Source: Candidatus Saccharimonadales bacterium
Lineage (GTDB): Bacteria > Patescibacteriota > Saccharimonadia > Saccharimonadales > EFPC-124
Direction of reading: 5' to 3'
Length of the DNA stretch: 64,000 nt
NCBI GenBank assembly: GCA_035457345.1
Contig: DATIBT010000033.1
Coordinates: 2,390 to 66,389, forward strand
Below the pieces are notes generated by a model that did not search any database, was not told where the DNA came from, and saw nothing but the letters and a program-made list of their open reading frames with translations. A program made the translations under genes and the position numbers. Positions within the stretch are counted from its first letter, which is position 1, and every line of letters starts with the position of its first letter. Shown piece by piece: positions 3,460 through 60,863 of this stretch.

Positions 3460-3549
3460 AGTGTTCCTTTTTACTTTTTTTCGCCTTACGCTTATGCTTG
3501 AGTATGCTTTTGTGGATTGTGTCTGTCAAGTCATGCATAATAGATAATT

Positions 3550-4191
3550 ATGAATAGCCGACTCGTACTACTATTATTACGACCTTCCATTGTGAGCGGA
3601 ATGGCCACTTTGACGGCGGCGGCGGCGGTAATTGGCGCTGCAAACTGGACATATATAACGTATACTTCAGGACTTTACGACTTTTTCTTTGGACGTTCTG
3701 GCTTAGTTACTGCACTCGAGGCCGCCCCTGACCTTGAAGCGCCAACTGCCGCTGCCCAGTCGCCTCTCTATGTGATTATGGTCGCCGTCATTGCTGTTGG
3801 CGGTGGGATTTTGGTCTTTTCTCTGCTTCATTTTATTCATGGGCTTATGCGCCGCGCGTCCGAACATCAAACGACCCAGCTTGAGATATATCGCCGGCGC
3901 GTACTGCGCCAAGAGTTCGGCTCGCGCTTGCTTTCTCGGGCATTAATTTTGGTATGTTGGGTCGGTTATATGGTGGTCTTTCTACAGTGGATGGTGCCCT
4001 ATGGCATCTTATGGTCACGCGTTGGCGCCGAAGATCTCATGTCGACAGAAGGCTGGATTCAGAACGGCACTGCCTTTGCCCTTATTGCAATTGGCTTGCA
4101 TATACACATAATTATGGCGCGGCTTTTTGTTATGCGTCCCCGTGTATTTGGTGGCGAGGCGGCCATAGAAGATGCACTTTCTGGACGCTAA
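3550..4191 (+). CDS. Hypothetical polytopic membrane protein
   Basis: 213-aa ORF with several hydrophobic helices; no family recognised. Confidence 0.35.
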   Translation: MNSRLVLLLLRPSIVSGMATLTAAAAVIGAANWTYITYTSGLYDFFFGRSGLVTALEAAPDLEAPTAAAQSPLYVIMVAVIAVGGGILVFSLLHFIHGLMRRASEHQTTQLEIYRRRVLRQEFGSRLLSRALILVCWVGYMVVFLQWMVPYGILWSRVGAEDLMSTEGWIQNGTAFALIAIGLHIHIIMARLFVMRPRVFGGEAAIEDALSGR

Positions 4192-20620: not shown

Positions 20621-22558
20621 TCACGCAGCCGCCGGGGCGGCGAAGAGCGCTTGCAGCCCTTCTGCATCGAGCGATTCGACTTCGAGCAGCTTGGTGCGCA
20701 GCAGCTCAAGTTTTTCGCGATGCCCGGTAAGTAGGGTGATCGCTGTCTGTTCAGCCTCCTTTACGAGCTTGTCAATCTCGGCAGTGACGTCGGCCAGGCG
20801 CGGGTCATGGCCTGAAGTTCCGAGTGGCACTTGGGCAGTGTACTTCTCGCCCATGCCCACTTTCGTCACCATGTAGGTGGCGAGTTGGGTTGCGACTTCG
20901 AGGTCAGACTCGGGGCCTGTGGTGAAGTCGTCGCCAAAGATCACCCGCTCGGCGGCCCGTCCGCCCATGTAGTAGGCGAGCCGGGCTTTGAGCTGTTTGA
21001 CTGTTAGGTACAGCCAGTCGCCGGTGTCCATGCGGGTATGGCCGCCGGATCCGCCTCTGGGCACAATGGTTACCCGGTGGGGCGGGTCGCCATGCTCTAG
21101 CAGCATCGCTACCAGTGCGTGGCCGCTTTCGTGGTATGCCGTGTAGTTGCGGTCACGCTCGGCTACTTCCCGGTTGCGTGCCAGGCCCACTTCGATGATC
21201 TCCAGGGCATCCCTGAAGTCCTTCATGGTGACACTTGGCGCGTCCCGCTTGATAGCAAGCAGACCTGCCTGGTTGCATAGAGCAGCCAGCTTTGCGCCGG
21301 TCATGCCGCTGGTGAGTCGCGCCAGCTCGGCATACGACACGTCGTCGTCCACTTGGGCGAGCTTAGCGGCATGGAGCCGCAGGATCAGCTCGCGTGCCTT
21401 AGGATCGGGTGCAGGCATGCTGGCATGCCGTGTGAAGCGACCCGGACGCATGATGCCAGGGTCGAGATCGTCAGGCCGGTTAGTCGCACCGAGCACTAGG
21501 ATTGTCGCGTCCGTGTCCTCTGTGAAACCGTCCATCTGCGCCAGCAGCTCGTTGAGCGTGTTGTTGAGCTCCTTGCTGCCGGAGTCGTCGTTGCTACTCC
21601 GCTTGCTGGCGATTGAGTCAATCTCGTCGATGAACAGAATACCCCGTCCGTGACGGCGAATTTGTGCGAACGCCTCCTTGACGGCGCGCGGGCCGTCGTT
21701 CAGCCAGCGGCCCATGAAGTCGGAACCCTTCATAGAGAAGAACGGCACACCGGCTTCACCAGCAATAGCTCGTGCCAACAGCGTCTTGCCCGTACCGGGA
21801 TCTCCCAGAAGGAGAATGCCGGTGAGGGGCTTGACCCCGCGCGCTTTGTACTTCTCGGGGTACTTGAGTGCGTCGACGCTTTGGGCGATTTCGGCAATGA
21901 CCTCGTCGGCACCGCCAACATCCTTGAAGCGCACGTTGGGTATGGCGGCGGGCGCTACCACCACGCCAGATGACTTCAGGCTATTTCCTATGCTCATACT
22001 CCTTAATGTGGTGCGATTGAGCCATATCAGGAGTAGGAGGAACAGGAATAGGAATAGGAATCCAAAGAACCACTGGTATTTTTCGGCAAAGCCCTTGCCT
22101 GCCACGGTCAGTGGGACACGTGGATTGGCCTTTTCGGCCGCCTCGACAAGATTCGGGCCGTAGCCTGTGGGGTAGGCCACCAGATAACCCTCACCATCCT
22201 TTAGCGTGACGGTCATCTGGTTGTGGTCGTTTTGGAGCTCTAGCTCCTGCACCTTCTGCTGCTTCAGGTCGGCATAGAACTGGCTGATCGGTTTGGTGTC
22301 TGGCTTGTGCTTCTCCGGCGAGGCAAGTAATGGCCACATGAGGAAGAAGACCATCAACGCCAACACTGGCCATACCGGTTTCAAGTGCACTGCGACCGGC
22401 TTGGCCTTCTCGCGCCACCAGCGCTTAAACTGTAGAACGTTCACCACTCTCCTAGTTTTTCTAGGTTTTGCGGACTTGTTGATTTTAAAATGAACTCGTA
22501 CATTAGTAAATGGCGCATTCCAGTAGTGTTTGACGTATGCCAAAAATACAGCGTACAA
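20621..22558 (-). CDS. ftsH: ATP-dependent zinc metalloprotease FtsH
   Basis: Two TM helices; AAA Walker A GDPGTGKTLLARAIAGEAGVPFF; SRH TNRPDDLDPGIMRPGRF; zinc site HESGHALV. The N-terminal extension before TM1 is unusual, so the true start may be internal. Confidence 0.93.
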   Translation of the reverse strand: MYAVFLAYVKHYWNAPFTNVRVHFKINKSAKPRKTRRVVNVLQFKRWWREKAKPVAVHLKPVWPVLALMVFFLMWPLLASPEKHKPDTKPISQFYADLKQQKVQELELQNDHNQMTVTLKDGEGYLVAYPTGYGPNLVEAAEKANPRVPLTVAGKGFAEKYQWFFGFLFLFLFLLLLIWLNRTTLRSMSIGNSLKSSGVVVAPAAIPNVRFKDVGGADEVIAEIAQSVDALKYPEKYKARGVKPLTGILLLGDPGTGKTLLARAIAGEAGVPFFSMKGSDFMGRWLNDGPRAVKEAFAQIRRHGRGILFIDEIDSIASKRSSNDDSGSKELNNTLNELLAQMDGFTEDTDATILVLGATNRPDDLDPGIMRPGRFTRHASMPAPDPKARELILRLHAAKLAQVDDDVSYAELARLTSGMTGAKLAALCNQAGLLAIKRDAPSVTMKDFRDALEIIEVGLARNREVAERDRNYTAYHESGHALVAMLLEHGDPPHRVTIVPRGGSGGHTRMDTGDWLYLTVKQLKARLAYYMGGRAAERVIFGDDFTTGPESDLEVATQLATYMVTKVGMGEKYTAQVPLGTSGHDPRLADVTAEIDKLVKEAEQTAITLLTGHREKLELLRTKLLEVESLDAEGLQALFAAPAAA

Positions 22559-29268: not shown

Positions 29269-29345
29269 CGGAGATTAGCGCAGCCTGGTAGCGCGCCGCG
29301 TTCGGGACGCGGAGGTCGTGGGTTCAAATCCCGCATCTCCGACCA
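29269..29345 (+). tRNA. tRNA-Pro (anticodon CGG)
   Basis: Acceptor CGGAGAT/ATCTCCG (C1-G72), D arm GCGC-AGCCTGGTA-GCGC, anticodon loop TTCGGGA, T arm AGGTC-GTGGG-TTCAAAT-CCCGC, discriminator A, CCA encoded. Confidence 0.88.
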
Positions 29346-29614
29346 TGATGTTATCCACAAAAAAGTTGCATGGTACCGTTCGGTATACCATAAGAATAGC
29401 CGGGGTGCTATGTGAAAAATTTATCATTCCACCCCTGTAGAACAAATCAAATTGAAGCCACAAAGAACCAATTTTACAAGATTGTTAAGTTAATGTAGTT
29501 TAGCATATACTGCGTGAGGCTCAATAATTTTGGTCTATGCAAGCCATGTATAGGCTTAGTTTTTGCTGCCAAAAAACTGTTTCTTCGTACCCAGCAATGG
29601 GGAAGGGAGTGAGC

Positions 29615-30160
29615 ATGCGGAACATGCTCAACAGGCTCAAGGGACGTACCGCGCTGCTGATCGCCGGTGCGGCCACCGCGGCGGCAATCGTCGGCGTGTC
29701 GGGCGGGGCGGCCTACGCGGTCATCACCGGCGCCACGTCCGGAACGGCCGTGCAGCATTCAATCGCCCGCAACGACACCGCGCTGCTGGTGCCCGGAGCA
29801 GCCAACACCTGGCAGACCGTCAGCGGCATGGTGCGGACCGTCTCGGTGCCGTCCGGCCAGCGGCGGCTGTTCATCGCCACGTACACCGCGGAGTCGCAGT
29901 GCACGGGCGGCAGCTGGTGCTCGGTGCGCATCGTGGTGCGCAACAACGCCACCGGCGCCGTGAGCGAGCTGTTGCCGGCCTCGGGCACGGACTACGCCTT
30001 CGACGCCCCGTCGACGGATCTGTGGGAAGGCCACGCCCGCACCCAGAGCACCAACTACCTGCCGGCGGGCAGCTACACCTTCTCCGTGCAGGCCAACCGG
30101 GTCGGCGGCAGCACGTTCCGCCTCGACGACATGCATTTCGAGGTCGTCGCGACCACCTGA
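29615..30160 (+). CDS. Secreted hypothetical protein encoded on a roughly 75% GC segment with actinobacterial-type codon usage
   Basis: RBS GGGAAGGGAG upstream of ATG 29615. Signal peptide MRNMLNRLKGRTALLIAGAATAAAIVGVSGGAAYA. Third codon positions almost all G/C. Two Cys; beta-rich; no recognisable family. Confidence 0.55.
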   Translation: MRNMLNRLKGRTALLIAGAATAAAIVGVSGGAAYAVITGATSGTAVQHSIARNDTALLVPGAANTWQTVSGMVRTVSVPSGQRRLFIATYTAESQCTGGSWCSVRIVVRNNATGAVSELLPASGTDYAFDAPSTDLWEGHARTQSTNYLPAGSYTFSVQANRVGGSTFRLDDMHFEVVATT

Positions 30161-30180
30161 CCCGCGGAGCAACAGTTGAA

Positions 30181-30213
30181 AGCCTCGGCCGCCCACCACG
30201 CGGGCGGCCGAGG
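30181..30213 (+). terminator. 13-bp GC-rich hairpin (gcctcggccgccc-accacgc-gggcggccgaggc) without U-tail, directly after the high-GC gene
   Basis: Perfect inverted repeat read in the sequence; this hairpin style is typical of high-GC Gram-positive terminators. Confidence 0.45.
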
Positions 30214-30243
30214 CCCCAACTATCCCCTGGCAGCCAGGTATTT

Positions 30244-31623
30244 ATGAGCAGTCCTCTTACGTTTACGCCGATTAAGCTTTACAATAGTGACATTATGCTT
30301 ATGTTTATTAAGCGCCTGTGGCACGACGCCGTACAGGGTGGCATTAAAGACAATGCCAGTGGCCCTCAGCGTGAGCTTGTCTATTTTATTAATGTGTATT
30401 CGTGGCTGGCTTTCTTGTCGTTGAGTGGTTTTGGCGTTCTGCACATTATCTCCGAAGGAAATCCGCAGTTAGGAAATCTTGAACTTCTTTGCGCCGCCGT
30501 TATCGTGTTGAATATGCTGGCACTGCGAGCCACCTACAACATTGCCATTGCTAGGTTTGGCCTCCTTGCCACTGTATTAACGGCACTCATTATTATGCTT
30601 ATGACCGGGGGCATGCAGAACACTGGCATTTTTTGGCTCTATGTATTCCCTGTCCTTGCATTCTTTTTGGCCGGGCGCCAAGGGGGTATTGCGTGGATGG
30701 CTGTGCTGTACGCAGCCATTTTCTTATTGTTCGCGCTTGAGAGGTACGAGTGGGTGGACATTCCGTATGCCCCTATTGTCTTGCGTCAGGCACTGATAAG
30801 CCTATTTGTGGTAACGATTGGCGTAGCCGTATATCAGCGCTCGCGCGATAAATATCAGAAAGAGGAGCAGGAAATTGATCAAGCTAAGAGCCAATTTGTG
30901 ACGCTGGCTTCGCACCAGCTCCGGACGCCCATTGCTGCGGTGAACTGGTTTGCAGAAATGCTCCTGAATGGCGATGCTGGCAAGCTCAACAAAGAGCAGC
31001 ACGATTACACGCGGCAGCTATACGCCAGCAACCGCCGGTTGTCTGGCATGGTAGATGTTATGCTACTTGTTTCCAGCCTGGAGCTCAATGAGTTGCGTAT
31101 TCGTTTGGAACCTACGGATATGGCGGCGTTGAGCCATCGGTCGTTAGAAGCGCAAATCCAAAAAGAGGGTAAGCACGACCTTCATATTGAAGAGCGGTAT
31201 GAAGATGGCTTGCCACGCATACGCGTAGACGCGCATGTCATGGGTATTATTATGCAGAATCTATTCTCGAACGCCCTTAAATATACTCCCAAAGGAGGCG
31301 CCGTAACAGTAACGATCAAGCGCAGCCCAGAGAAATTGACGATTGGCAGCAAGGGAAGCATAGAGATTGCGATAACAGATACAGGATACGGCATTCCTAC
31401 CTCACAACGGGACAAAGTGTTTGGCAAACTCTTCCGGGCAGATAATATAAAAATCAAAGACACTGACGGCACTGGCTTGGGGCTATATAGTGTGCGTGCC
31501 CTTTTATCGCAGGTGGGCGGCCGCATATGGTTTGAGTCCCAGGAAGACAAGGGCACGACGTTTTTTGTCCTTTTGCCTATTGAGGGTATGAAAAAACAAC
31601 ATGATTCCGAGGGAAAAAGGTGA
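30244..31623 (+). CDS. Sensor histidine kinase with N-terminal polytopic membrane sensor domain
   Basis: Six predicted TM helices, then HisKA (LASHQLRTPIAAVNWFAEML, phospho-His) and HATPase_c (N box NLFSNALKYTP, G1 DTGYGIP, G2 GTGLGLYSV). Start at ATG 30244 after the GC-rich segment. Confidence 0.85.
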   Translation: MSSPLTFTPIKLYNSDIMLMFIKRLWHDAVQGGIKDNASGPQRELVYFINVYSWLAFLSLSGFGVLHIISEGNPQLGNLELLCAAVIVLNMLALRATYNIAIARFGLLATVLTALIIMLMTGGMQNTGIFWLYVFPVLAFFLAGRQGGIAWMAVLYAAIFLLFALERYEWVDIPYAPIVLRQALISLFVVTIGVAVYQRSRDKYQKEEQEIDQAKSQFVTLASHQLRTPIAAVNWFAEMLLNGDAGKLNKEQHDYTRQLYASNRRLSGMVDVMLLVSSLELNELRIRLEPTDMAALSHRSLEAQIQKEGKHDLHIEERYEDGLPRIRVDAHVMGIIMQNLFSNALKYTPKGGAVTVTIKRSPEKLTIGSKGSIEIAITDTGYGIPTSQRDKVFGKLFRADNIKIKDTDGTGLGLYSVRALLSQVGGRIWFESQEDKGTTFFVLLPIEGMKKQHDSEGKR

Positions 31624-50436: not shown

Positions 50437-51237
50437 CTAGTTCCCTTGGGGTGCTAGCTCACGCCTTCGCTTGCTTGCACGGTCGGCCGCGACGCCATAC
50501 GCAACCATCAGTAGGATGGTGATGGTGATTCCTAGGCTGACCATCCACGCGCCGAGTGTTCCGCGGGCACGGAATCCTTCCCGCAGTAGGAATACGGCGA
50601 TGAAGTACTCCCACACCTGGACCTTCATGGTGAGGCGCATCAACAGGACGCTAAATCGGAAATCAAAATCCGAGTAGGCCGCCCAGTACTGTTCTGTCCG
50701 ATCTTCTAGTACGGCCACCAGCTGGCGCCGGTCACGCCGGCACCACCAGGGGATGGCGTCGGTAACACGCAGGATGATGATTGCGTCGAGTACGCCGCTT
50801 ACTCCTCCGGAGAATGCCCACCGGACACACCACCAGCGCCACCATAGCGGATTGGCATACCGTGCGAAATCTTCGCGGCCCGCCGGTGTACTTTGGGTGG
50901 CGGTGACGTAGCGCCAGCAGAAGTTGCGGGCGTACTTGATGACAGTCTGGTGCCGCAGGGCACTATCCCATATGACGCCGGTCGCCAGCAGGGTGATACC
51001 GATTGGCCACGCCAGCTTCCAGCCGTCGAAGGCCGGATGCCAGACGGGGTAGGTGGACCAGACGCATGTCATGAGCACCAATAACCAGAAGGCAGTTTGC
51101 ACCGACCGCCGGTCATCTCGGAACTTCGCCGACCATCGGTCGACCACGTACGGCGCCCGGCCGATACCGAGCACTGAGCCTGCGAAGCGCATTGCGCCTG
51201 CAAAACCCATCAGCTGTTCTCCTTGTTCTATTGGCAA
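50437..51237 (-). CDS. Hypothetical Trp/Arg-rich polytopic membrane protein on a GC-elevated segment
   Basis: 266 aa, several TM helices, about 58% GC versus about 49% for the surroundings; no family recognised. Confidence 0.3.
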   Translation of the reverse strand: MPIEQGEQLMGFAGAMRFAGSVLGIGRAPYVVDRWSAKFRDDRRSVQTAFWLLVLMTCVWSTYPVWHPAFDGWKLAWPIGITLLATGVIWDSALRHQTVIKYARNFCWRYVTATQSTPAGREDFARYANPLWWRWWCVRWAFSGGVSGVLDAIIILRVTDAIPWWCRRDRRQLVAVLEDRTEQYWAAYSDFDFRFSVLLMRLTMKVQVWEYFIAVFLLREGFRARGTLGAWMVSLGITITILLMVAYGVAADRASKRRRELAPQGN

Positions 51238-51625: not shown

Positions 51626-52168
51626 TCATGCTTTGAGGTAGGCAATGCCGGCCTTGCGCAGTGCATCTTCGATTCCTTCGACCATGTCCGGGGTCATGTC
51701 CGGAATCTCGCGCAGCTCTGCTGGCGTCCAGCGGCGCAGGAACTCTACCGAGGTGATACAAGTTGCTATGAGGACGTTCCATATTGGGTCACTTAGTTCC
51801 AGTTTGTCTTTCAGGTCTTCCCTGAGCAGTTCCTCCGGCGTGACGTCTGCGAACCTGAGACCCAACTGCTTCATGAGGCTGAGGATCACGAGCATGGAGT
51901 TGTGGTTCTGACCGATCATCACCCAGAAGTGACGGAACGCCATGTCTCTGGCCCGGTCCAGCGTGTACCACCACTCGGGCCTGAGCGGGTTCAAGCAATC
52001 GCTCAGCGGCACGTAGTCGCCGATGCGGATTTGATCCGCCGGCAGCGGCTCACCTTTCTGGCCGAGTGGCGTAAATTGCAACCCATGCACGGCTGCAGTC
52101 GCAGCAATTTGGTGTACTGCGCCCTCGCCGAGAGGCTCGCCGGTGATGGTAAGGTGAAATACGGGCAT
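51626..52168 (-). CDS. Hypothetical protein with C-terminal RNA polymerase alpha-subunit CTD-like helix-hairpin-helix domain (paralog 1)
   Basis: The C-terminus LELSDPIWNVLIATCITSVEFLRRWTPAELREIPDMTPDMVEGIEDALRKAGI matches the alphaCTD pattern. Start at ATG 52168 preceded by GGAGG-N6; the annotated ORF begins at an upstream TTG. Confidence 0.5.
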   Translation of the reverse strand: MPVFHLTITGEPLGEGAVHQIAATAAVHGLQFTPLGQKGEPLPADQIRIGDYVPLSDCLNPLRPEWWYTLDRARDMAFRHFWVMIGQNHNSMLVILSLMKQLGLRFADVTPEELLREDLKDKLELSDPIWNVLIATCITSVEFLRRWTPAELREIPDMTPDMVEGIEDALRKAGIAYLKA

Positions 52169-52195
52169 GGTGCCCCTCCAATCCTGGTCGAGCAA

Positions 52196-52224
52196 ACTAT
52201 ATCATTAATAAGCAATTCTAACAA
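52196..52224 (-). promoter_or_regulatory. Sigma70-like promoter of alphaCTD-like paralog 1 (TTGTTA-17 nt-TATAGT)
   Basis: Hexamers with 17-nt spacer read on the minus strand; a near-identical promoter precedes paralog 2. Confidence 0.45.
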
Positions 52225-52380
52225 ATTTAGCAGGTGGCTTGTCCTGGGCGGCCACGATGATTATACCTTCGCCCGTTTGAGGAGCGGCTTTGTCGCACAG
52301 ACAAACTTTATTATTGTTTCCGGGGTAATTGACCAGGGTGGAGCATTCGCGCTGGCGGGGCCTGCAGCCCCGCCGGCACG

Positions 52381-52938
52381 TCACTCGCCTGCGAGCTTGA
52401 GTCCGAGCAGGGCCAGCTTACGTCGGATCTCGCCAATGCCTTTGTCGCCGAGGTTGCGGAAATCGTTCAGGTCGCCTTTGGTCCAGAAGCTCAAGAAGTA
52501 CATCGATTTGATTTTTTCGCGGTCGAGTACGTTAAATACTCGTACGCTGAAGTTCATGTCGTTGATGTCGTTCGTTAGTAGCCGTTCAGGGTCGGCGTCG
52601 GCGAATGACGCATCGTTGTCGCGCATCAGCCTGATGATCTGGAAGGCGGCCTCGAGGCAGGCGTCATTGCGGTGTAATAGGGTGGTGTTCCAGAACTGCC
52701 TGAAGGTGACGGCTTCCAGGTCTGCCACCGTGATCATGTTGCCTTGCTTGAGCCGGCTGGCTATGCCGTCTGGCAACACGACATGCTCGGCAATGACGAC
52801 CGTAGCTCCTTGCGAGATGTAGTCCTGCCCCTCCACTACCTCCACTTGGAAACCGACTTGACGCGCGAGTGAAATGACTCGCCGCGACGGCGCGCCCGCT
52901 AGTTCTGCACCGCCCGAAATCGTGATAACAATTTCCAC
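52381..52938 (-). CDS. Hypothetical protein with C-terminal RNA polymerase alphaCTD-like domain (paralog 2)
   Basis: The C-terminus FSVRVFNVLDREKIKSMYFLSFWTKGDLNDFRNLGDKGIGEIRRKLALLGL closely follows the alphaCTD consensus (L.VR..N.L....I..i.dL......eL....N.G.KSL.EI...L...GL). Probable GTG start at 52938 after GGAGG-N6. Confidence 0.5.
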   Translation of the reverse strand: MEIVITISGGAELAGAPSRRVISLARQVGFQVEVVEGQDYISQGATVVIAEHVVLPDGIASRLKQGNMITVADLEAVTFRQFWNTTLLHRNDACLEAAFQIIRLMRDNDASFADADPERLLTNDINDMNFSVRVFNVLDREKIKSMYFLSFWTKGDLNDFRNLGDKGIGEIRRKLALLGLKLAGE

Positions 52939-53772: not shown

Positions 53773-54627
53773 TTAATGACGGCGCCTTATCCACTGGTTG
53801 CCGCCGCTGATGGGCTTGGCTGTTGCGAACCGGACGGGCGGCCGCAATTGCAAGGTGCGCTTTCCGATGAACCTATCCAATAGTGACTCAACCTCTTTGA
53901 GCACGGGAATGGATGCTTCACGCGTGTTCAATAGTCGGTCAATGATCGATCCGCTGAGCACCACCTCTCGCTCTGGATGTGTCAGAATCAGAGGCACGAG
54001 CGCCCATTGCACGAAGTTGCGCAGATGAAAGTGTTGCCATTGCTCTTGCCGAATGTTGCCGAAATCGCCATTCGCGAAGTCCCGCAGCCCAGCTGCGCCG
54101 ACCAACAGGTCTACGCAGCACCCTACGCCGCACGGGCAGTTCAATCCATTCCCGGCGTAAGGTGCTGGGAAGTGACCGATGGGCACTCGTGTAGCAGCCA
54201 GACTGTCGCTTGCGGTAGTTGCCGCCGTGATGCCGGCATCCCACGATACGCAGGTGAGAGCCTTTGGGGAGCTAGTGCCAGACAGTTCTCCCGCTAGTAC
54301 GGCTTCTGCTGCCTCGCAGACGCTCACCGGAATGTCACCGAGTGCTTCCTTCAGGTTCATCTCCACCGTCGGGCCAGCCCAATTTGCGTACAAGACACCC
54401 ATACTGAGCACTCGCCTCATAGGAGTGAGCGCCGCGGGGAGCACAAGCACCGCCTCTTCCGGCGGTACGCTTCCCCACGCCGCCTGGGCCGCCCGGGCAG
54501 TGTTTTCGAGCCAGGTCCAGTAATCACGGTTTGTGGGAAATGTGCGGTCGCCAGCAAGCCCGCCGGGAGATGGAATGCCAAGCCGTGTGTTGCTCACGTC
54601 AACGGCAATGACAAGTCGTCTTGTCAT
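53773..54627 (-). CDS. ROK-family protein (sugar kinase/regulator-like) on a GC-elevated segment
   Basis: N-terminal LVIAVDVSNTRLGI (actin-fold phosphate-1) and a Cys-rich zinc motif CPCGVGCC resembling the ROK CxCGxxGC signature; about 60% GC. Confidence 0.55.
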   Translation of the reverse strand: MTRRLVIAVDVSNTRLGIPSPGGLAGDRTFPTNRDYWTWLENTARAAQAAWGSVPPEEAVLVLPAALTPMRRVLSMGVLYANWAGPTVEMNLKEALGDIPVSVCEAAEAVLAGELSGTSSPKALTCVSWDAGITAATTASDSLAATRVPIGHFPAPYAGNGLNCPCGVGCCVDLLVGAAGLRDFANGDFGNIRQEQWQHFHLRNFVQWALVPLILTHPEREVVLSGSIIDRLLNTREASIPVLKEVESLLDRFIGKRTLQLRPPVRFATAKPISGGNQWIRRRH

Positions 54628-54675: not shown

Positions 54676-56205
54676 TTATAATTCGCGCAGCACTTCTATG
54701 TGGGCGCCAATTGAGTTGAGCCGCGCGGCCAGGTCCTCGTAGCCACGGTTAATAGAGTAGACATTACGCAGTACCGAAACGCCATCGGCGGCAAGCATGC
54801 CGATCAAAATAAGCACAGCAGGCCGCAAGGCAGGCGGACAAATGACTTCGGCGGCTCGCCAGTGCGTCGGCCCGTTAACGTAGGCACGGTGCACGTCGGC
54901 AAGCGTAATTTCAGCATTGAGTTTGTTTAGTTCCGTGTAATAGATGGCGCGGTTTTCGTATGTCCAGTCATGAATAAGCATTTTACCCCGTGCGTTTGCG
55001 GCAATTGGCACAAAGTAAGGCAGGTTGTCCATGTTCATACCTGGATCGTCGTGGGCTTCAAGCTTGTCTTCAAGCGCAATCAGGTGCGATGCGTCGAGGC
55101 ACTGGATATCCACGAGTGCCGTGTGACCGTTTTTGGCTTTGTACTCGTCGCTAACTTTAAACTTGAAGTTCATCTTTTCGAGCTTAAGCAGCTCAAGGTC
55201 GAGGTAGTCAATCGGTACACGGCGAATAGTGATAGGTGAGTTAGTGGTGGCCGCGATGCTTAAGAAGGTCATGGCTTCGATTGGGTCTTCGCTGGGCCAA
55301 TATTCAACATCTTCATTTATAGTCTTTTTGCCGTGGATGCGGAGGGTGTGCGTGCCAATGCCTTCTACCTTGACCCCAAGCTTGGTTAAGAAGTGACAGA
55401 CGTCGACAACCATATAGTTACTGGCAGCGCGGCGGATTTCAACGACACCGTTGATACGGGCTGCGGCCATAATAGCGTTTTCGGTTGGGGTGTTACCACT
55501 TTCGTACATCACAACTTTGCCTGGGTTGCGTGGCTTGCTTGTACAGTTGTACCAGCCGGTCGTGGTAGTAACTTTGAGGCCCATTTCTTCAAGGGCAAAC
55601 AGGTGAGGGCGGATGGTGCGCTCGCCCAACTTGCAGCCACCAGCGAACGGAATTTTAAATTCAGGAAGCAAGTGCATGAGCGGACCCATGTACATAAGGA
55701 CACTGCGGGTTTTGCGGCCCGCTTCGACGTCGATATTTTTCATCTGCAGCTTGGCCGGCGGCTTGATCTCCAGGTCGCCAAGGTCATTCAGCCAGCGCAC
55801 TTTTACGCCAATGCTGATGAGTACCTCGATAAGGCGGTTGACCTCTTCAATCTTTGGCATCCGGCGTAGGGTTGTTGTGCCCTTGTTGAGTAACGAGGCG
55901 CACAAAAGACCAACGGCGGCGTTTTTGCTTGTACGCACAGTAATCTCACCTTTGAGCTTATGGCCGCCTTCGATACGGAAGTTCAGCGTGCCAGGACGGT
56001 TAAGCGATACAATCTCGCTGTTAAGCGCGTCGCTAATACGGGCCAACATTTCCATGCTCAGGTTCTGGCCTCCGTTCTCGATGCGGTTTACCGCGCTTTG
56101 GCTCGTCTTAAGCGCCTTAGCGAATTCGGCCTGGGTAAGGCCGCGGTCGAGTCGGGTTTGTTGAATTAACTTACCAATCTTTTGCTTGTAGTGCAGATCT
56201 GTCAT
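54676..56205 (-). CDS. murA: UDP-N-acetylglucosamine 1-carboxyvinyltransferase (MurA) with N-terminal XRE-type helix-turn-helix domain
   Basis: First roughly 70 aa IGKLIQQTRLDRGLTQAEFAKALKTSQSAVNRIENGGQNLSMEMLARISDAL = Cro/C1-type HTH. The remainder has MurA/EPT motifs (GEITVRTSKNAAVGLLCASLL; catalytic-Cys loop AGGCKLGERTIRPH). Confidence 0.85.
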   Translation of the reverse strand: MTDLHYKQKIGKLIQQTRLDRGLTQAEFAKALKTSQSAVNRIENGGQNLSMEMLARISDALNSEIVSLNRPGTLNFRIEGGHKLKGEITVRTSKNAAVGLLCASLLNKGTTTLRRMPKIEEVNRLIEVLISIGVKVRWLNDLGDLEIKPPAKLQMKNIDVEAGRKTRSVLMYMGPLMHLLPEFKIPFAGGCKLGERTIRPHLFALEEMGLKVTTTTGWYNCTSKPRNPGKVVMYESGNTPTENAIMAAARINGVVEIRRAASNYMVVDVCHFLTKLGVKVEGIGTHTLRIHGKKTINEDVEYWPSEDPIEAMTFLSIAATTNSPITIRRVPIDYLDLELLKLEKMNFKFKVSDEYKAKNGHTALVDIQCLDASHLIALEDKLEAHDDPGMNMDNLPYFVPIAANARGKMLIHDWTYENRAIYYTELNKLNAEITLADVHRAYVNGPTHWRAAEVICPPALRPAVLILIGMLAADGVSVLRNVYSINRGYEDLAARLNSIGAHIEVLREL

Positions 56206-56279: not shown

Positions 56280-56579
56280 TTAGTGCTGTGCGGCAAGCGC
56301 CGTTGCAACAACGTGCGAACACATCCTACTACCGCCAGAAGTACTGCCGGTAGACCCGCAGGTGCACTGCCAGCTCAGCCCGAAAGCGCTGCTGGCCAGA
56401 ACGGTGTTGTACGTTTGTTGTAGGGTAGGATCGGCGATCTGTCCATCGATGCGCGCATCTTCTATATGCGTTGCCCGTGCCTGATTTTGGCTGAAGTATT
56501 CTTGCCCCTGTTGCATGTCCTGCGTTGACGCGTGGGTGCGCAGTGTGTTGTTGTCAATGAGCGTTCTCGCTGGTTGCAT
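56280..56579 (-). CDS. Small hypothetical protein
   Basis: 99-aa ORF between murA and glyA, Gln/Thr-rich with a Cys cluster; coding status uncertain. Confidence 0.2.
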   Translation of the reverse strand: MQPARTLIDNNTLRTHASTQDMQQGQEYFSQNQARATHIEDARIDGQIADPTLQQTYNTVLASSAFGLSWQCTCGSTGSTSGGSRMCSHVVATALAAQH

Positions 56580-56676: not shown

Positions 56677-57936
56677 ATGCATGATAAAGAAATTGAAACG
56701 TTAATTCAGGCCGAAATCGCCCGCCAGACAAACGGCCTGGAGATGATCCCAAGCGAAAACCACACGTCTGGCGATGTGCTCAAAGCCCTAGGGTCTCGTT
56801 TAACCGATAAATACTCCGAAGGCTACCCCGGCAAGCGCTACTACGGCGGCTGTGAAGTTGTTGACCAGGTAGAGAACTTGGCTCGCGACCGTGCCAAGGC
56901 GTTATTCGGCGTGAACCATGTGAATGTGCAGGCATATAGTGGTAGCCCGGCAAATATGGCGGTGTACTACGCATTGTGCGATCCGGGCGACACAGTCATG
57001 GGCCTTCAATTGTACTTCGGCGGTCACATGACGCACGGGCTCAAAGTGAACTTTAGCGGCAAGTGGTTTAACAGCGTACAATACCAAACAGGCAAAGATG
57101 GCTACCTAGATTACAATGCCATTGCGGACCTTGCCGCTCAGCACAAGCCCAAGCTTATTGTTGTGGGCGCTACTGCTTACCCGCGCATTTTTGACTGGAA
57201 GCGGTTGCGAGACATTGCCGACACGTGCGGCGCCTATTTGCTTGCGGATATCTCGCATATTGCCGGGTTGGTGGTGGCTGGTGAGCATCCATCGCCAGTG
57301 GGAATTGCAGATGTCGTTACTACGACGACGCATAAGACTCTTCGGGGTCCACGCGGCGCGCTTATTATGTGCAACGGTAATCCGTCTAATCCGCTCAAAG
57401 CAGTGGATCGTAGCCGCGAGAATTTACCCACGCTTATTGACCGGGCAATCATTCCCGGTTTGCAAGGCGGCCCGCATAACCACCAGACGGCAGCCATTGC
57501 TGTTGCACTGCATGAAGCGGCGCAACCTTCCTTTACGGAGTACGGACGCCAAATAGTAAAAAATGCCAAACGATTGGCAGAAAATCTTTCTAGCCGGGGC
57601 TACGAGTTAGTGACCGGCGGCACCGACAACCATCTGCTCCTCGTTGATTTAACGAACAAAGGGGTGACTGGCGCCGAGGTCGAGTCGGCACTCGGCAAGG
57701 CTGGTATTACGGTGAATAAAAATACGGTGCCATTTGACCCACGCCCGCCGTTCAGCCCAAGTGGGATCAGGCTAGGCACGCCGGCACTTACGACCCGCGG
57801 CCTAAAAGAGGCTGAGATGGATAAGGTTGCTGAATGGATTGATACTGCTGTAGCCGCCAGAGGTGACGATACCAAGCTATCTACCATTCACAAAGAAATA
57901 ACAGAATTCACAAAAGCGTTTCCGTTGCCAAACTAG
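56677..57936 (+). CDS. glyA: Serine hydroxymethyltransferase
   Basis: Full-length SHMT: MIPSENHTS, PLP-Lys motif TTTTHKTLRGPRGALIM, and VNKNTVPFD. Confidence 0.95.
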   Translation: MHDKEIETLIQAEIARQTNGLEMIPSENHTSGDVLKALGSRLTDKYSEGYPGKRYYGGCEVVDQVENLARDRAKALFGVNHVNVQAYSGSPANMAVYYALCDPGDTVMGLQLYFGGHMTHGLKVNFSGKWFNSVQYQTGKDGYLDYNAIADLAAQHKPKLIVVGATAYPRIFDWKRLRDIADTCGAYLLADISHIAGLVVAGEHPSPVGIADVVTTTTHKTLRGPRGALIMCNGNPSNPLKAVDRSRENLPTLIDRAIIPGLQGGPHNHQTAAIAVALHEAAQPSFTEYGRQIVKNAKRLAENLSSRGYELVTGGTDNHLLLVDLTNKGVTGAEVESALGKAGITVNKNTVPFDPRPPFSPSGIRLGTPALTTRGLKEAEMDKVAEWIDTAVAARGDDTKLSTIHKEITEFTKAFPLPN

Positions 57937-58030
57937 AAGCGGGGCCCGCGATCTCTTATTGTGTTCGAGACCGCGGGCCGAGCCCTACGACTGGGCGGAT
58001 GGGCCACTTGTTTGGCGCCGCCCGGTAGCG

Positions 58031-58630
58031 TCAGCCACCCGAGTTGCTTCGACCGGCGCCGATGAGGACGTTTTCACCCGTGACGGACGAGGCGTCTGGC
58101 GCGGGCGGTTCGGCCGTCAGCGCCTTGGCACTGGTGATGCCGCGTGCGGCCTCGACACTGGAGCGCAGGACGTACCGGAACGCGAGGTGTCGGCCGATAC
58201 CGAAGCGTGGCTTCACGTACCTGAGCAGTGTGTCGGCCAGCTCGGGCTCACCCATGAAGATGAGCGCCAGTCGCTCTGGCGTGGCATATAGCTGCACGTG
58301 ACCACGGTCCGACGGACTCCATGAGCCCGGCGTTTGGGTGAGGACGTTGGTCAGGCGGCTGACGAGCGCACCCTCGTCTTGGCCGATGGCAGCCTTGATC
58401 GCGCGGTTGTCGGTGCCGCCGTACGTGATCTTCATGCCCATGCCGCGGGCGGTCAGGAGCAGGTCACGCACGACAGCCTGCATGCTGGTGACTTCGCTTC
58501 GCAGGTGCATCACCAGAGGTTCCTGGCTAGACCGGCGGATCTTGCTGATCGCGTTCCCCGCAGCCCACACCGGCAGGGTGGAGGCAAGCAGGATGGCGAC
58601 CGGATTGTAAAGCAGATCTTGCGGGGACAT
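58031..58630 (-). CDS. Hypothetical protein on a high-GC (about 62%) segment
   Basis: ORF with GC3-rich codon usage; start placed at the internal Met (MSPQDLL...) where GC-rich sequence begins; the annotated ORF extends to 58747. Confidence 0.35.
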   Translation of the reverse strand: MSPQDLLYNPVAILLASTLPVWAAGNAISKIRRSSQEPLVMHLRSEVTSMQAVVRDLLLTARGMGMKITYGGTDNRAIKAAIGQDEGALVSRLTNVLTQTPGSWSPSDRGHVQLYATPERLALIFMGEPELADTLLRYVKPRFGIGRHLAFRYVLRSSVEAARGITSAKALTAEPPAPDASSVTGENVLIGAGRSNSGG

Positions 58631-58851
58631 AGCAGCCTTTCGGCCATAGCTCGCGAGGGGCCAACTATTGGCATCGCACGCCACCAATGGCTTCAGTAGC
58701 GATCGTAGAGCTTTTGTTGTTATAGTCTTTTTTAGTTTTAGTGTCAAGATAAAACGCGAGAGAGTTAGGAATGCCCGCGGCTAGGCCGCGGGCTTCCCTA
58801 CGCTGTTGCACATGCACTGTTAGCGTGGCCCCGGGGTGGTGGGCCACGGTG

Positions 58852-59484
58852 TTACTCGGAACGAGGGGGGCCGGTGTCGGGGCTGTTTGCCCTATTGTTG
58901 TTACCGATGGTTGGCTGTTCACCAGTGCTTCCGGTGTGATTTGCCAGTGCCTCCTGAAAGAACCCGAGGCCTTGGGTGTTCTCCACGAGGGTTGCCAGAG
59001 GGCCTTCTGGCGGTACTGCCACCTCTTCGGTAGGCGGTACTGGCGGTGCCGAGATGGGAACAGAGAGGAGAACATCTCCGTCCGAAGTGACTGGGGTGGC
59101 CGTACGCGGCTCTCTCGTAGGAACGGGGTTCGGCCTGGCGAACCGTTCGCGGCCCGTCACGGCTTCGGGGTCCGGGGTGGTCGGCGACGGTGCAACCGGC
59201 ATGGGAAGCTGGTCACCCGAGGGGCTGATCCCGCTTTCCAGCAGGCGCGTTCTGCTGAGATCCCTCCCCAGATGAGGGAACTGGCTGTAGACGAACTCAA
59301 GCGCGGTTCGTACAGCAACTGCCACGTCCTCTCTGCGCCGTTCCGCTGCGGCCGCCAGATCTTCGTCGCGTTGGAGCAAGAGATCCTTATATGTGTCCTC
59401 CGCGGCTTTTCGTAACTTCTCGTGGTCGGCCCGGACGGTGTGGTACCCGGCCATCGCTCCTTCGATCTGGTTGGCTAGGGTCAC
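58852..59484 (-). CDS. Hypothetical Pro-rich protein on the high-GC segment (probably longer, with an N-terminal TM helix encoded upstream of the first ATG)
   Basis: Pro/Thr-rich linker PMPVAPSPTTPDPEAVTG. In-frame upstream sequence encodes a TM-like helix (WLTLIGIAILIVTSLV), suggesting a GTG/TTG start near 59600. Confidence 0.35.
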   Translation of the reverse strand: MTLANQIEGAMAGYHTVRADHEKLRKAAEDTYKDLLLQRDEDLAAAAERRREDVAVAVRTALEFVYSQFPHLGRDLSRTRLLESGISPSGDQLPMPVAPSPTTPDPEAVTGRERFARPNPVPTREPRTATPVTSDGDVLLSVPISAPPVPPTEEVAVPPEGPLATLVENTQGLGFFQEALANHTGSTGEQPTIGNNNRANSPDTGPPRSE

Positions 59485-59734
59485 AATGTCTTCGTCGATC
59501 TCACGTACTCGCCGCCCCGTCTCCCAGGCAATGACTGCCCGGACGAGGCTTGTGACGATCAGGATGGCAATGCCAATCAGCGTGAGCCATTGGAAGGTAG
59601 AAAAGGTAGAGATGACGGACTCCTCTTCCTTGTAGTGTGCATGCTCTAAACGGCTAAGCCGTCCGCGCTTCTGAGCGCCTTGCGTAGAGCGACCGTATTT
59701 TATACTTATTAGATGTGATGGTCAAGCCTTTGGG

Positions 59735-60760
59735 CTATAGCACTTGTGGTTCGCGTGCCAGCTGAATGCCGAACTTTTGTTGTACTGCGTCGATAATTTT
59801 TTGCTCGAACTTTAGTGCATCGGCCGTACTTTTTGCATGCTCATTCACTAAAACCAGTGCTTGGGCAGGCCAGGTTGCCATGCCTGTTTCTGTATCGTGT
59901 GCGGCTTTAAACCCTGCTTCTTGTACTAGCCAGGCAGCGGGAATTTTGTATGCGCCATCACCGACTGGCCAATAGGTGAGGTCGGGGTAGGCTGCTTGCA
60001 GTGCCTCAAGTTGCGGCTGGGAAATGATGGGGTTTGCAAAAAAAGAGCCATTGTTTGCAATCTTTTTAGGGTCTGGCAGCTTGGCGGTGCGCACGGCAAT
60101 CACTGCTTCTCGGAGGGTGCGCGGGGTGAATTCAGTTATGTGATGCTCATCTAAATAGCGCTGTAGCGGAGGGTAGAACGGCGGCTGCGGATTCCCTTTT
60201 TCAAGGTCGAGTACAATAGAAGTGATAAAAAATCTTCCGTGGTCATTCGTTTTAAACCGGCTGCTGCGGTAGGTGAGTTCGCATTCTTCTTTTGGAATGG
60301 TAACCATACGGTTAGATTGGGCGTCGTAAGCATGCACCTCAACCAACGTGTTTGCAATCTCTTGGGAGTAGGCGCCCACGTTTTGCACCGGCGTTGCACC
60401 GGCCGTGCCTGGTATGAGGCTGAGATTTTCGATGCCGGATAGTCCGTGTTCGGCAGTTCGGGCTACAATATCGTCCCATATCTCGCCGGCACCAATTGTT
60501 AGACGGTAGTGCGTGTCGTTAAGTTGCTCTTCGCGGTAGCCTTTTATTTCATTCACGAGCACCAGGCCCGGAAAGCCCGCATCATTCCATAAAATGTTGC
60601 TGCCGCCGCCAATCATGACCACGGGGAGTTTTTTGCCCTGGGCCCAGGCAATAGCTTCTTTCAGTTCATCTTCTGTGTGTATGTGAGCAAGGTAGGCTGC
60701 ATTGCCGCCCAGCCGCATGGTAGAGTAGGCTTTTAGCGAAACATCTGATTGAATCTGCAT
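59735..60760 (-). CDS. murB: UDP-N-acetylenolpyruvoylglucosamine reductase
   Basis: FAD-binding domain LKAYSTMRLGGNAAYL...PVVMIGGGSNILW and the MurB C-terminal domain. Confidence 0.9.
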   Translation of the reverse strand: MQIQSDVSLKAYSTMRLGGNAAYLAHIHTEDELKEAIAWAQGKKLPVVMIGGGSNILWNDAGFPGLVLVNEIKGYREEQLNDTHYRLTIGAGEIWDDIVARTAEHGLSGIENLSLIPGTAGATPVQNVGAYSQEIANTLVEVHAYDAQSNRMVTIPKEECELTYRSSRFKTNDHGRFFITSIVLDLEKGNPQPPFYPPLQRYLDEHHITEFTPRTLREAVIAVRTAKLPDPKKIANNGSFFANPIISQPQLEALQAAYPDLTYWPVGDGAYKIPAAWLVQEAGFKAAHDTETGMATWPAQALVLVNEHAKSTADALKFEQKIIDAVQQKFGIQLAREPQVL

Positions 60761-60787: not shown

Positions 60788-60863
60788 GCGCCCGTAGCTC
60801 AGGGGATAGAGCGTTGGTTTCCGGTACCAAAAGTCGTAGGTTCGAATCCTACCGGGCGTACCA
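60788..60863 (+). tRNA. tRNA-Arg (anticodon CCG)
   Basis: Acceptor GCGCCCG/CGGGCGT, D arm GCTC-AGGGGATA-GAGC, anticodon stem TTGGT/ACCAA with loop TTCCGGT, T arm GTAGG-TTCGAAT-CCTAC, discriminator A, CCA encoded. Confidence 0.85.

Follow-up and report, generated by a model that had tools for sequence, protein, structure and literature searches.

A GC-rich gene pair between glyA and murB of a Saccharimonadales bacterium: evidence for an old, clade-specific orphan module with a shared expression frame and predicted mRNA end pairing

The locus studied here raises the question of where a block of strongly GC-rich DNA between the core genes glyA and murB came from, and what it encodes. The block lies on a contig from a Candidatus Saccharimonadales metagenome-assembled genome (MAG), within the 64-kb stretch of DNA that was analysed (the window; overall guanine plus cytosine content, GC, 0.520). 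A preliminary description of this DNA had reported a block of about 62% GC with two minus-strand open reading frames (ORFs) between the glyA stop and murB, codons rich in GC at the third position (GC3) and a Pro/Thr-rich linker, and had explained it by repeated acquisition from a high-GC, actinobacterium-like donor. The composition and the gene content were confirmed: GC is 0.617 (61.7%) over 57937-59720, 300-nt sliding windows showed 0.62-0.67 over 57850-59350 in sharp contrast with 0.48-0.55 in the flanks, ORF1 (58031-58630) and ORF2 (stop at 58852) were both found, and the linker PMPVAPSPTTPDPEAVTG was located in ORF2. The GC at first, second and third codon positions is 0.65/0.515/0.795 in ORF1 and 0.68/0.51/0.68 in ORF2, compared to a mean GC3 of 0.558 (standard deviation 0.054) over the ORFs of the window, so that the GC3 of ORF1 lies about 4.4 standard deviations above the mean. 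The explanation by a recent donor did not hold. Comparison with related genomes indicates that the block is an old, clade-specific orphan gene pair and not a recent actinobacterial import, and we consider this cassette to be probably a clade-restricted two-gene accessory module, most likely vertically inherited, in a naturally variable gap downstream of murB.

The decisive evidence is the synteny of the pair in relatives. An exhaustive HMMER search over 1.84 billion representative proteins returned only two plausible homologues of ORF1, P0004 (expect value, E, 2e-10) and P0005 (E 7e-10), whose genes are both located between murB and glyA, each directly after the gene of a 259-aa ORF2 homologue. 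Two related loci were compared with the window: L082 (JGI 3300078412), with the gene order murB > ORF2 > ORF1 > NUDIX > < glyA, and L081 (Logan assembly of SRR28521204), with ORF2 > ORF1 > < glyA at a contig end. Among these three loci, pairwise BLASTP gave E-values of 1e-5 to 1e-9 for ORF2 and of 1e-15 to 1e-19 for ORF1. The cassettes of L081 and L082 exhibited a GC of 0.64-0.67 and a GC3 of 0.74-0.81, and the adjacent glyA, murB and NUDIX genes a GC3 of 0.58-0.65. On a neighbour-joining tree of GlyA, the window, L081 and L082 form a single clade. Because these related genomes hold the syntenic pair at the equal site, in the same order and orientation and with the same odd GC excess, which the preliminary description itself regarded as the sign of an ancient insertion, a recent import is contradicted. 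Mis-assembly, the other explanation that had been considered, is excluded by the equal gene order in three independent assemblies (the NCBI MAG, the Logan assembly and the JGI locus).

The other searches added no relative to these. A word-indexed search over 5.8 billion proteins retrieved just the window's own proteins and the syntenic ORF2 of L081, and the hidden Markov models of the two families matched nothing in the remaining 80 loci. No match was obtained in a scan of JGI metagenomes with the ORF1 family, in scans of viral contigs with both family alignments, or by blastn against phage and against plasmid DNA, and no actinobacterial, phage or plasmid relative was found in these searches. 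Two further HMMER matches with E < 0.001, P0003 and P0006, are long repeat proteins with many weak matching stretches and were judged spurious from this repeat pattern alone. In P0003, a 2965-aa adhesin-like repeat protein, eight repeats match residues 62-131 of ORF1 at about 10 bits each (summed E 7.5e-16), which we treated as a repeat-inflated chance match.

We compared the gap itself across Saccharimonadales. The order murA-glyA-murB is kept in about 35 species representatives, with a glyA/murB gap of 8 bp to 1.6 kb and unrelated cargo. In the loci surveyed (L001-L042), the gap is essentially empty (8-90 bp) in about 14 related Saccharimonadales, so that the block, compositionally distinct accessory DNA, is an insertion relative to them, as had been proposed; the gap is filled by a NUDIX hydrolase gene in 7 genomes, and its other occupants, mostly lacking a family match, include DUF1861 (L008), a protein with five transmembrane (TM) helices (L016) and proteins with no family match (L003, L019, L011, L029). 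Empty gaps predominate in the more basal clades of the GlyA tree. The convergent glyA/murB gap is thus a hotspot for lineage-specific genes across Saccharimonadales, bacteria in which orphan accessory genes are common.

The two cassette proteins diverge fast, with an identity among the three genomes of 28-35% for ORF1 and 29-33% for ORF2, compared to 84-90% for GlyA and 69% for MurB. At the nucleotide level, the cassette coding regions are 61-65% identical, the ORF2-ORF1 intergenic DNA 72-81% and the glyA coding region 75-81%; L081 and L082 are the closest pair in both intergenic DNA and glyA (0.81 each), and the order of the two comparisons with the window differs. The non-coding signals around the cassette genes are therefore as conserved as glyA coding DNA. 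Four-fold degenerate sites of glyA are 39-51% identical, against 27-29% expected from composition. Those of the cassette show an identity at or near the composition expectation, yet they have a GC of 0.71-0.93 in all three lineages, and this fits a maintained composition.

glyA and murB converge on the block, and ORF1 and ORF2 (NCBI locus names of the two proteins VLA88_03855 and VLA88_03860) share the strand of murB, downstream of it. The features of the locus are the following.

56677-57936, plus strand: glyA, serine hydroxymethyltransferase (PF00464, E 9e-164), conserved flank.
57943-57989, minus strand: 3' motif of the ORF1 unit, CGTAGGGC (57982-57989), and GC-rich hairpin (57943-57979; -28.7 kcal/mol), between the stops of ORF1 and glyA.
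58031-58630, minus strand: ORF1, 199 aa, with a hydrophobic helix at the N-terminus, then an all-helical domain, then a variable tail whose end reads L-x-G-A-G.
58631-58711, minus strand: ORF1 leader, with the 5' motif GCTCTACG (58704-58711) at its start, two hairpins that are conserved, and GAAAGG (58636-58641) as its Shine-Dalgarno sequence, part of which lies within a third small hairpin.
58719-58747, minus strand: promoter-like site of ORF1, TTGACA-17-TATAAC, missed by the promoter scan, its -10 hexamer lacking the final T.
58766-58802, minus strand: 3' motif of the ORF2 unit, CGTAGGGA (58795-58802), and GC-rich hairpin (core 58773-58793; extended arms 58766-58781 and 58785-58800; -28.1 kcal/mol).
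58824-58849, minus strand: first GC-rich hairpin past the ORF2 stop (palindrome 58824-58848; -15.5 kcal/mol).
58852-59613, minus strand: ORF2, 253 aa if the start is the ATC at 59613; frame open to about 59720.
59614-59682, minus strand: ORF2 leader, with the hairpins GCGCT-CAGA-AGCGC and ACGGC-TTA-GCCGT (read from the sequence) and the Shine-Dalgarno sequence GGAAGAGGAG (59620-59629).
59683-59690, minus strand: 5' motif of the ORF2 unit, GCTCTACG, 6 nt past the -10 hexamer, at or near the presumed 5' end of the transcript.
59697-59725, minus strand: ORF2 promoter, TTGACC-17-TAAAAT, 10 of 12 matches, beginning 9 nt past the murB stop.
59735-60760, minus strand: murB, with FAD_binding_4 and MurB_C domains, conserved flank.

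The two palindromes already reported between the ORFs both exist, about 2 nt away from where they had been placed (gcccgcggc-tag-gccgcgggc at 58773-58793; (c)gtggccc...gggccac(g) at 58824-58848). Two antisense ORFs of the plus strand (214 aa and 121 aa) were rejected as genes, being without independent conservation; weak matches of the 121-aa frame to L082 (E 1e-4 and 1e-3) look like a mirror of the sense-strand similarity.

A common expression frame surrounds these genes. It was compared in seven units, two genes each in the window, L081 and L082 and one gene in L017, a fourth locus with the same frame (four loci, four genomes). All seven begin with a promoter of sigma-70 type and a 5' motif; then come a structured leader, a Shine-Dalgarno sequence of GGAAGG type and the coding region, and the unit is closed by a 3' motif and a GC-rich hairpin. 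The promoter has the form TTGACx, a spacer of 16-17 nt, then TAtAAt, the score being 12 of 12 matches in L082 and, for both the window and L081, 10 of 12: the orthologous ORF2 promoters are TTGACA-16-TATAAT in L082 (12/12) and TTGACT-17-TATAGT in L081, and both relatives have TTGACT-17-TATAAA at the ORF1 promoter site. The 5' motif, G[CT][CT][CT]TACG, lies 6-10 nt after the promoter in 7/7 units, and the 3' motif, CGTAG[GA]G, is followed by a hairpin with a CCCGCGG core after all seven genes. These motifs were not shared by the other gap occupants in relatives or by the other GC-rich ORFs of the window.

In L017 the frame encloses another gene. The glyA/murB gap of this locus (2474-3767) has a GC of 0.617, compared to 0.504 in its flanks, and holds a single gene for a 373-aa TM protein in an equal frame. 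This protein is not detectably homologous to ORF2: hhalign gave a probability of 2%, and only FQW and TGEQ-like snippets are in common. The leader of L017 has hairpins (GCACT-GGA-GTGC and GCGGC-TTCG-GCCG) that match those of the ORF2 leader. No consensus structure was obtained with RNAalifold for the four ORF2-type leaders, which are too divergent to align. For the ORF1 leader, of about 80 nt (L081 1014-1100; L082 2790-2875), the fold comprises 26 predicted pairs, and compensatory changes were seen at 3 of these in a comparison of just 3 sequences. It has no match in Rfam, and a pattern built on it returned 3 chance matches without cassette features in a metagenome scan and none in a viral scan. 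The ORF1 leader may be a new cis-regulatory RNA.

Where translation of ORF2 begins had to be decided, since its frame has no ATG, GTG or TTG upstream of the GTG at 59484, and the conserved TM helix lies upstream of this first canonical start. In the window, L081 and L082, an ATC codon is found 6-7 nt past the Shine-Dalgarno sequence, at a place where L017 has GTG. Because of this conserved Shine-Dalgarno and ATC arrangement, and with no canonical start upstream of the TM helix, the start was placed at the ATC at 59613, in agreement with the upper end of about 59600 given in the preliminary description. ORF2 thus probably starts at this ATC, and the NCBI call for VLA88_03860 (P0002; 157 aa) is probably truncated, with a true length of 253 aa. 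The same reasoning places the probable start of ORF1 in L082 at the 16th codon. An interpretation of ORF2 as a frameshifted gene (the ATG at 59642 being out of frame) was dropped for the conserved start. Non-AUG initiation at AUU or AUC has precedents, for example infC, which starts at AUU; ORF2 resembles such cases in a conserved near-cognate Ile codon 6-7 nt past a strong Shine-Dalgarno sequence, which would imply throttled or regulated initiation. It differs in that its case is a comparative one (three ATC orthologues and one GTG orthologue) and has no link to IF3 autoregulation.

Both products are predicted to be membrane-tethered. The preliminary description had called one of the ORFs membrane-anchored; a hydrophobic N-terminal helix was predicted in both. 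In ORF2, the TM helix (residues 10-28) comes after a 9-aa uncharged N-terminal tail; on its other side lie basic juxtamembrane residues, a long charged helix up to about residue 125 and the Pro/Thr-rich disordered region, and the C-terminus carries a conserved motif, GLGFFxEAL...TGEQP or more loosely GLGxFxExL...TGEQP, over two short helices in the AlphaFold model. All seven proteins of the units have a near-uncharged tail of 7-12 residues (0-1 Lys or Arg), a hydrophobic helix, then 3-5 Lys or Arg within 15 residues, so that ORF1 and ORF2 look like N-out/C-in proteins with their bulk in the cytoplasm. A check of both proteins by structure prediction, as had been advised, gave helices in both but no family or function from fold or PDB searches. 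The models are weak, with a predicted local distance difference test score (pLDDT) of 64 for ORF1, all-helical, and of 58 for ORF2, and profile searches of the PDB gave low-complexity noise only, such as Fab heavy chains on the Pro/Thr-rich region. ORF1 and ORF2 are not detectable paralogues of each other (hhalign probability 0.6%). A perfect 17-nt inverted match was seen between glyA (57615-57631) and ORF1 (58405-58421), where both encode GGTDN with identical codons; we estimate its chance at about 1e-4 in 2.4 kb, GGTDN is not conserved in the ORF1 homologues, and the match may be a coincidence or a micro gene-conversion.

The most distinctive property of the frame is the complementarity of its two motifs. 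In each unit, the 5' motif is the reverse complement of the unit's own 3' motif over 8-11 bp (7/7 units, with one mismatch in the ORF2 unit of the window). Each unit has one U.G wobble, for which pairing is possible on the sense strand only; the 8 wobble cells are U.G without exception on that strand. In an 11-pair helix over the seven units, 88% of the cells pair, compared to 29-40% after a shift of the 3' partner by 1-3 columns, and the covariation score is 0.251 compared to 0.165 in shuffles, 8 of 500 of which reach 0.251 (seven related sequences only). The pair adjoining the core motif is A-U three times, C-G twice and U-A once, and cross-pairing of the ORF2 3' motif with the ORF1 5' motif fails at this covarying position in 3/3 loci. 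Partition-function folds of the full presumed transcripts (770-1240 nt) gave the helix a probability of 0.5-1.0 in 6 of the 7 units, and of more than 0.8 across the core positions. From the complementary motifs and the covarying adjoining position, pairing of the 5' and 3' ends of each cassette mRNA next to its 3' stem-loop is therefore predicted.

Similar arrangements have been described in two mRNAs. In Bacillus subtilis hbs, a 14-bp interaction of the 5' untranslated region (UTR) with the 3' UTR modulates RNase Y cleavage of the mRNA (PMC5737220), and in Staphylococcus aureus icaR base-pairing of the 5' UTR with the 3' UTR masks the Shine-Dalgarno sequence (PMC3868564). The cassette resembles both in that a short long-range helix (8-11 bp, compared to 14 bp in hbs) would join the 5' leader to the 3' UTR of one monocistronic mRNA beside a 3' stem-loop, and in the effect to be expected on RNase access and translation. 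It differs in using the presumed extreme 5' end and the nucleotides abutting the 3' hairpin, in recurring in seven units of one locus in four genomes, in being known here by prediction alone and, compared to icaR, in leaving the Shine-Dalgarno sequence unmasked.

In the reading of the cassette that was given above as the probable one, each gene would be its own transcription unit. Transcription from the sigma-70-type promoter would start at or near GCUCUACG, and the mRNA would run through a structured leader with a Shine-Dalgarno sequence and through the coding region to CGUAGGGC and a 3' hairpin rich in GC. Its first 8-11 nt would pair with the bases immediately 5' of the 3' hairpin of the same mRNA and close the mRNA into a loop, which would most likely shield it from 5'- and 3'-end-dependent decay or couple its stability to translation, as in hbs. 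Translation of ORF2 would begin at the conserved ATC codon, and both products would expose a short N-terminal tail outside the cell, cross the membrane by one helix and keep most of the protein in the cytoplasm. The most speculative step concerns function: given the murA-glyA-murB setting, ORF2, with its coiled helix, Pro-rich tether and short conserved C-terminal peptide, and ORF1, with its helical domain, might act as scaffolds. A bolder proposal, to which we give a probability of roughly one in four, is that in a Saccharimonadales subclade a dedicated, conserved expression frame drives hyper-divergent, GC-rich, membrane-tethered proteins by means of a near-consensus promoter, a closed-loop mRNA, a structured leader and, for one gene, an AUC start; the high GC would be kept up by the demands of RNA structure or stability, without being a foreign scar, and the frame would outlast its cargo, as in L017.

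Several points speak against the main reading and its steps. The transcript ends were deduced from the positions of promoters and hairpins, and the 3' hairpins have no U-tracts, so that termination is not assured. In the ORF2 unit of the window the helix has a probability of about 0.1, its 3' motif CGTAGGGA being absorbed into the extended local hairpin, and within the ORF1 leader taken by itself GCUC at the 5' end forms local pairs with GAGC. Statistically, the covariation is weak, coming from 4 related loci and 7 units with double changes in one pair only. As for the start of ORF2, ATC start codons are rare, and L081 and L082 also have an in-frame ATG or GTG further upstream. The topology was predicted by the positive-inside rule only. 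As to function, neither ORF1 nor ORF2 had a significant match in Pfam, PHROG, PADLOC or NCBIfam, hence no homology support, and Foldseek with the AlphaFold models returned nothing below E 0.06, hence no fold support.

The suggestion that ORF1 and ORF2 are membrane-tethered scaffolds linked to envelope growth or division is a tentative one that we regard as rather unlikely to be right as it stands. It derives from a ZipA/EzrA-like layout and the murA/murB neighbourhood: like these proteins, ORF2 would have a single TM helix behind a short N-terminal tail, then basic juxtamembrane residues, a long charged helix, a Pro-rich linker and a small C-terminal element, the charged helix and the disordered region being those of the low-confidence model. 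That element is just about 25 residues long, the resemblance is architectural only, and Pfam, NCBIfam and PDB searches retrieved neither the C-terminal domain of ZipA nor the repeats of EzrA.

The high GC could be that of an ancient import still ameliorating, or a maintained composition. The first would have the cassette enter the ancestor of the window, L081 and L082, possibly also of L017, from a very GC-rich donor and then descend vertically, so that the original donor claim would be right and only its recency wrong; we hold this to be a possible but doubtful origin. It would account for a GC3 far above the genome norm, for the empty site in more basal relatives and for proteins that are rich in Ala, Gly and Pro and in which Arg greatly outnumbers Lys. 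It is also compatible with the time available, as a Jukes-Cantor estimate on glyA four-fold sites gave about 1.2 substitutions per site between lineages, at which an ancestral GC3 of about 0.95 could still be about 0.75. On the other side, the 1.84 billion representative proteins held no plausible donor homologue, the TTGACA/TATAAT promoters are AT-rich and, by their appearance, host-like, and the intergenic DNA diverges at the rate of glyA coding DNA. The four-fold sites of the cassette, at or near composition identity and still at 0.71-0.93 GC in three lineages, argue in the same direction, that is, for a composition that is maintained, as in the frame proposal.

A role of the 8-mers and GC hairpins at the DNA level, as repetitive extragenic palindromic (REP)-like elements, as ends of the IS200/IS605 insertion sequence type or as integron-like sites that swap coding regions, is improbable in our opinion. 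Such a role would explain a frame kept around unrelated cargo: inverted 8-mers bracket each gene, L017 has the flanks in common without detectable protein homology, and the 3' element, C-GTAG-GGC followed by a GC-rich palindrome, resembles REP elements, in which GTAG is followed by an imperfect GC-rich palindrome shortly past a stop codon. It is made less likely by the strand-specific wobble, by the promoter, which lies outside the inverted 8-mers, and by hairpins that are not dispersed. The single U.G of each unit pairs on the sense strand only and the motifs are systematically asymmetric; the 64 kb hold 5 perfect GC hairpins; GCCCGCGG was found 5 times against 4.5 expected and is not enriched; and the cassette was found at one chromosomal site only. 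Compared with REP elements, that of the cassette is not repetitive, with three copies in 64 kb, all within the cassette, no RAYT (REP-associated tyrosine transposase) gene was seen, and the partner 8-mer lies at the transcript start of its own gene. Compared with integron cassettes, each ORF has its own promoter, no attC-type GTTRRRY cores flank the hairpins, and the neighbours are murB and glyA, with no integron integrase.

Recent or repeated independent acquisition of a mobile high-GC cassette from actinobacteria (or from a phage or plasmid) at the glyA/murB hotspot is most improbable. It would suit the hypervariable gap, with its wide range of sizes and unrelated cargo, the very divergent cassette proteins and the life of Saccharibacteria on Actinomycetota hosts, but the three two-gene carriers belong to one GlyA clade, the non-coding DNA diverges in the glyA range with L081 and L082 closest in both, and neither a donor homologue nor a phage, plasmid, viral-contig or actinobacterial match was found. 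No mobility signature was detected at the cassette either: no integrase, no flanking direct repeats in the repeat search and no tRNA at the junctions. A tRNA-Arg(ccg) gene (60788-60863), which lies just upstream of murB, beyond it from the cassette, is near murB in many relatives with or without a filled gap, and was rejected as an integration target because it is also present in cassette-free relatives. The block has in common with genomic islands a deviant composition, an accessory content and a variable spot between core genes; it differs from them in the lack of mobility genes, direct repeats, junction tRNA and donor homologues, in its presence at the equal site in the two closest relatives found, and in regulatory DNA that diverges at the rate of a core gene.

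The remaining possibility, that the genes are a phage-module remnant kept at the hotspot (a holin/spanin-like lysis pair, or superinfection-exclusion or defence proteins), has hardly any likelihood: the proteins are small, N-terminally anchored and fast-evolving membrane proteins with weak matches to an Rz-like spanin (PHROG phrog_739, E 0.23) and to GspM (E 0.025; 14 bits, where the cut-off is 60), but these matches are far below threshold and reflect the TM-plus-coiled-coil layout only, PADLOC gave no match for any family member (0 matches with the proteins of L081, L082 and L017), the neighbourhood has no phage genes, neither phage nor viral-contig similarity was found, there is no partner lipoprotein, both proteins would by their predicted topology lie mostly in the cytoplasm, and a spanin would have no role in Saccharibacteria, which have no outer membrane.

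The preliminary description had further linked the block to an island at 29.6 kb as a sign of repeated import. This link did not stand, the island being different in kind, with one secreted-type gene beside tRNA-Pro and no motif in common with the cassette. The island is a single gene (29615-30160, plus strand; GC3 0.875) for a 181-aa protein with a signal or TM helix, a beta-rich body and no Pfam match; it adjoins tRNA-Pro(cgg) (29269-29345), and a perfect 13-bp GC hairpin (30182-30214) follows the gene. A 686-aa ORF at 29563-31623 looks like a mechanical read-through that enters a MASE6-HisKA-HATPase histidine kinase; the true start of this kinase, judged from the domain positions, is probably downstream. 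Raised GC3 was also seen elsewhere in the window, in FtsH (GC3 0.70) and in three ORFs with no Pfam match (GC 0.57-0.60, GC3 0.63-0.71), at 20621-22558, 50437-51237, 51902-52822 and 53773-54627; the latter three lie near a sortase gene and tRNA-Gly, tRNA-His and tRNA-Arg genes, and none has the flanking motifs of the cassette. Because of these ORFs, GC heterogeneity is not confined to the two islands.

The locus carries a caution of method, since the combination of a sharp GC3 anomaly with Pro-rich sequence and GC hairpins was no sign of a recent transfer from an actinobacterial host. It defines two orphan protein families, known from three genomes, beside cell-wall genes of an ultra-small epibiont; to our knowledge, almost nothing is known of envelope or division accessory factors of Saccharimonadales. 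It also corrects an annotation, that of VLA88_03860, from 157 aa to probably 253 aa. The RNA-level idea rests on four loci and on prediction only, in a frame that is conserved like a core gene while the coding regions diverge fast. If confirmed, the cassette mRNAs would be a rare comparative case of bacterial mRNA-end pairing, and we know of no earlier case in the candidate phyla radiation.

Two observations concern the neighbouring genes. MurA (54676-56205) has an N-terminal HTH_3 (XRE-type) domain fused to the EPSP-synthase fold; over the first 103 residues the identity to L081 and L082 is 93-95%, and in most relatives the full fusion has tblastn matches that span about 1.5 kb. Between murA and glyA, a small conserved protein of 99 aa (56280-56579) that is 59% identical in L082, with no significant Pfam match, exhibited a C-x-C...C-x-H pattern (WQCTCGS...MCSHV), which resembles a SWIM-type zinc finger.

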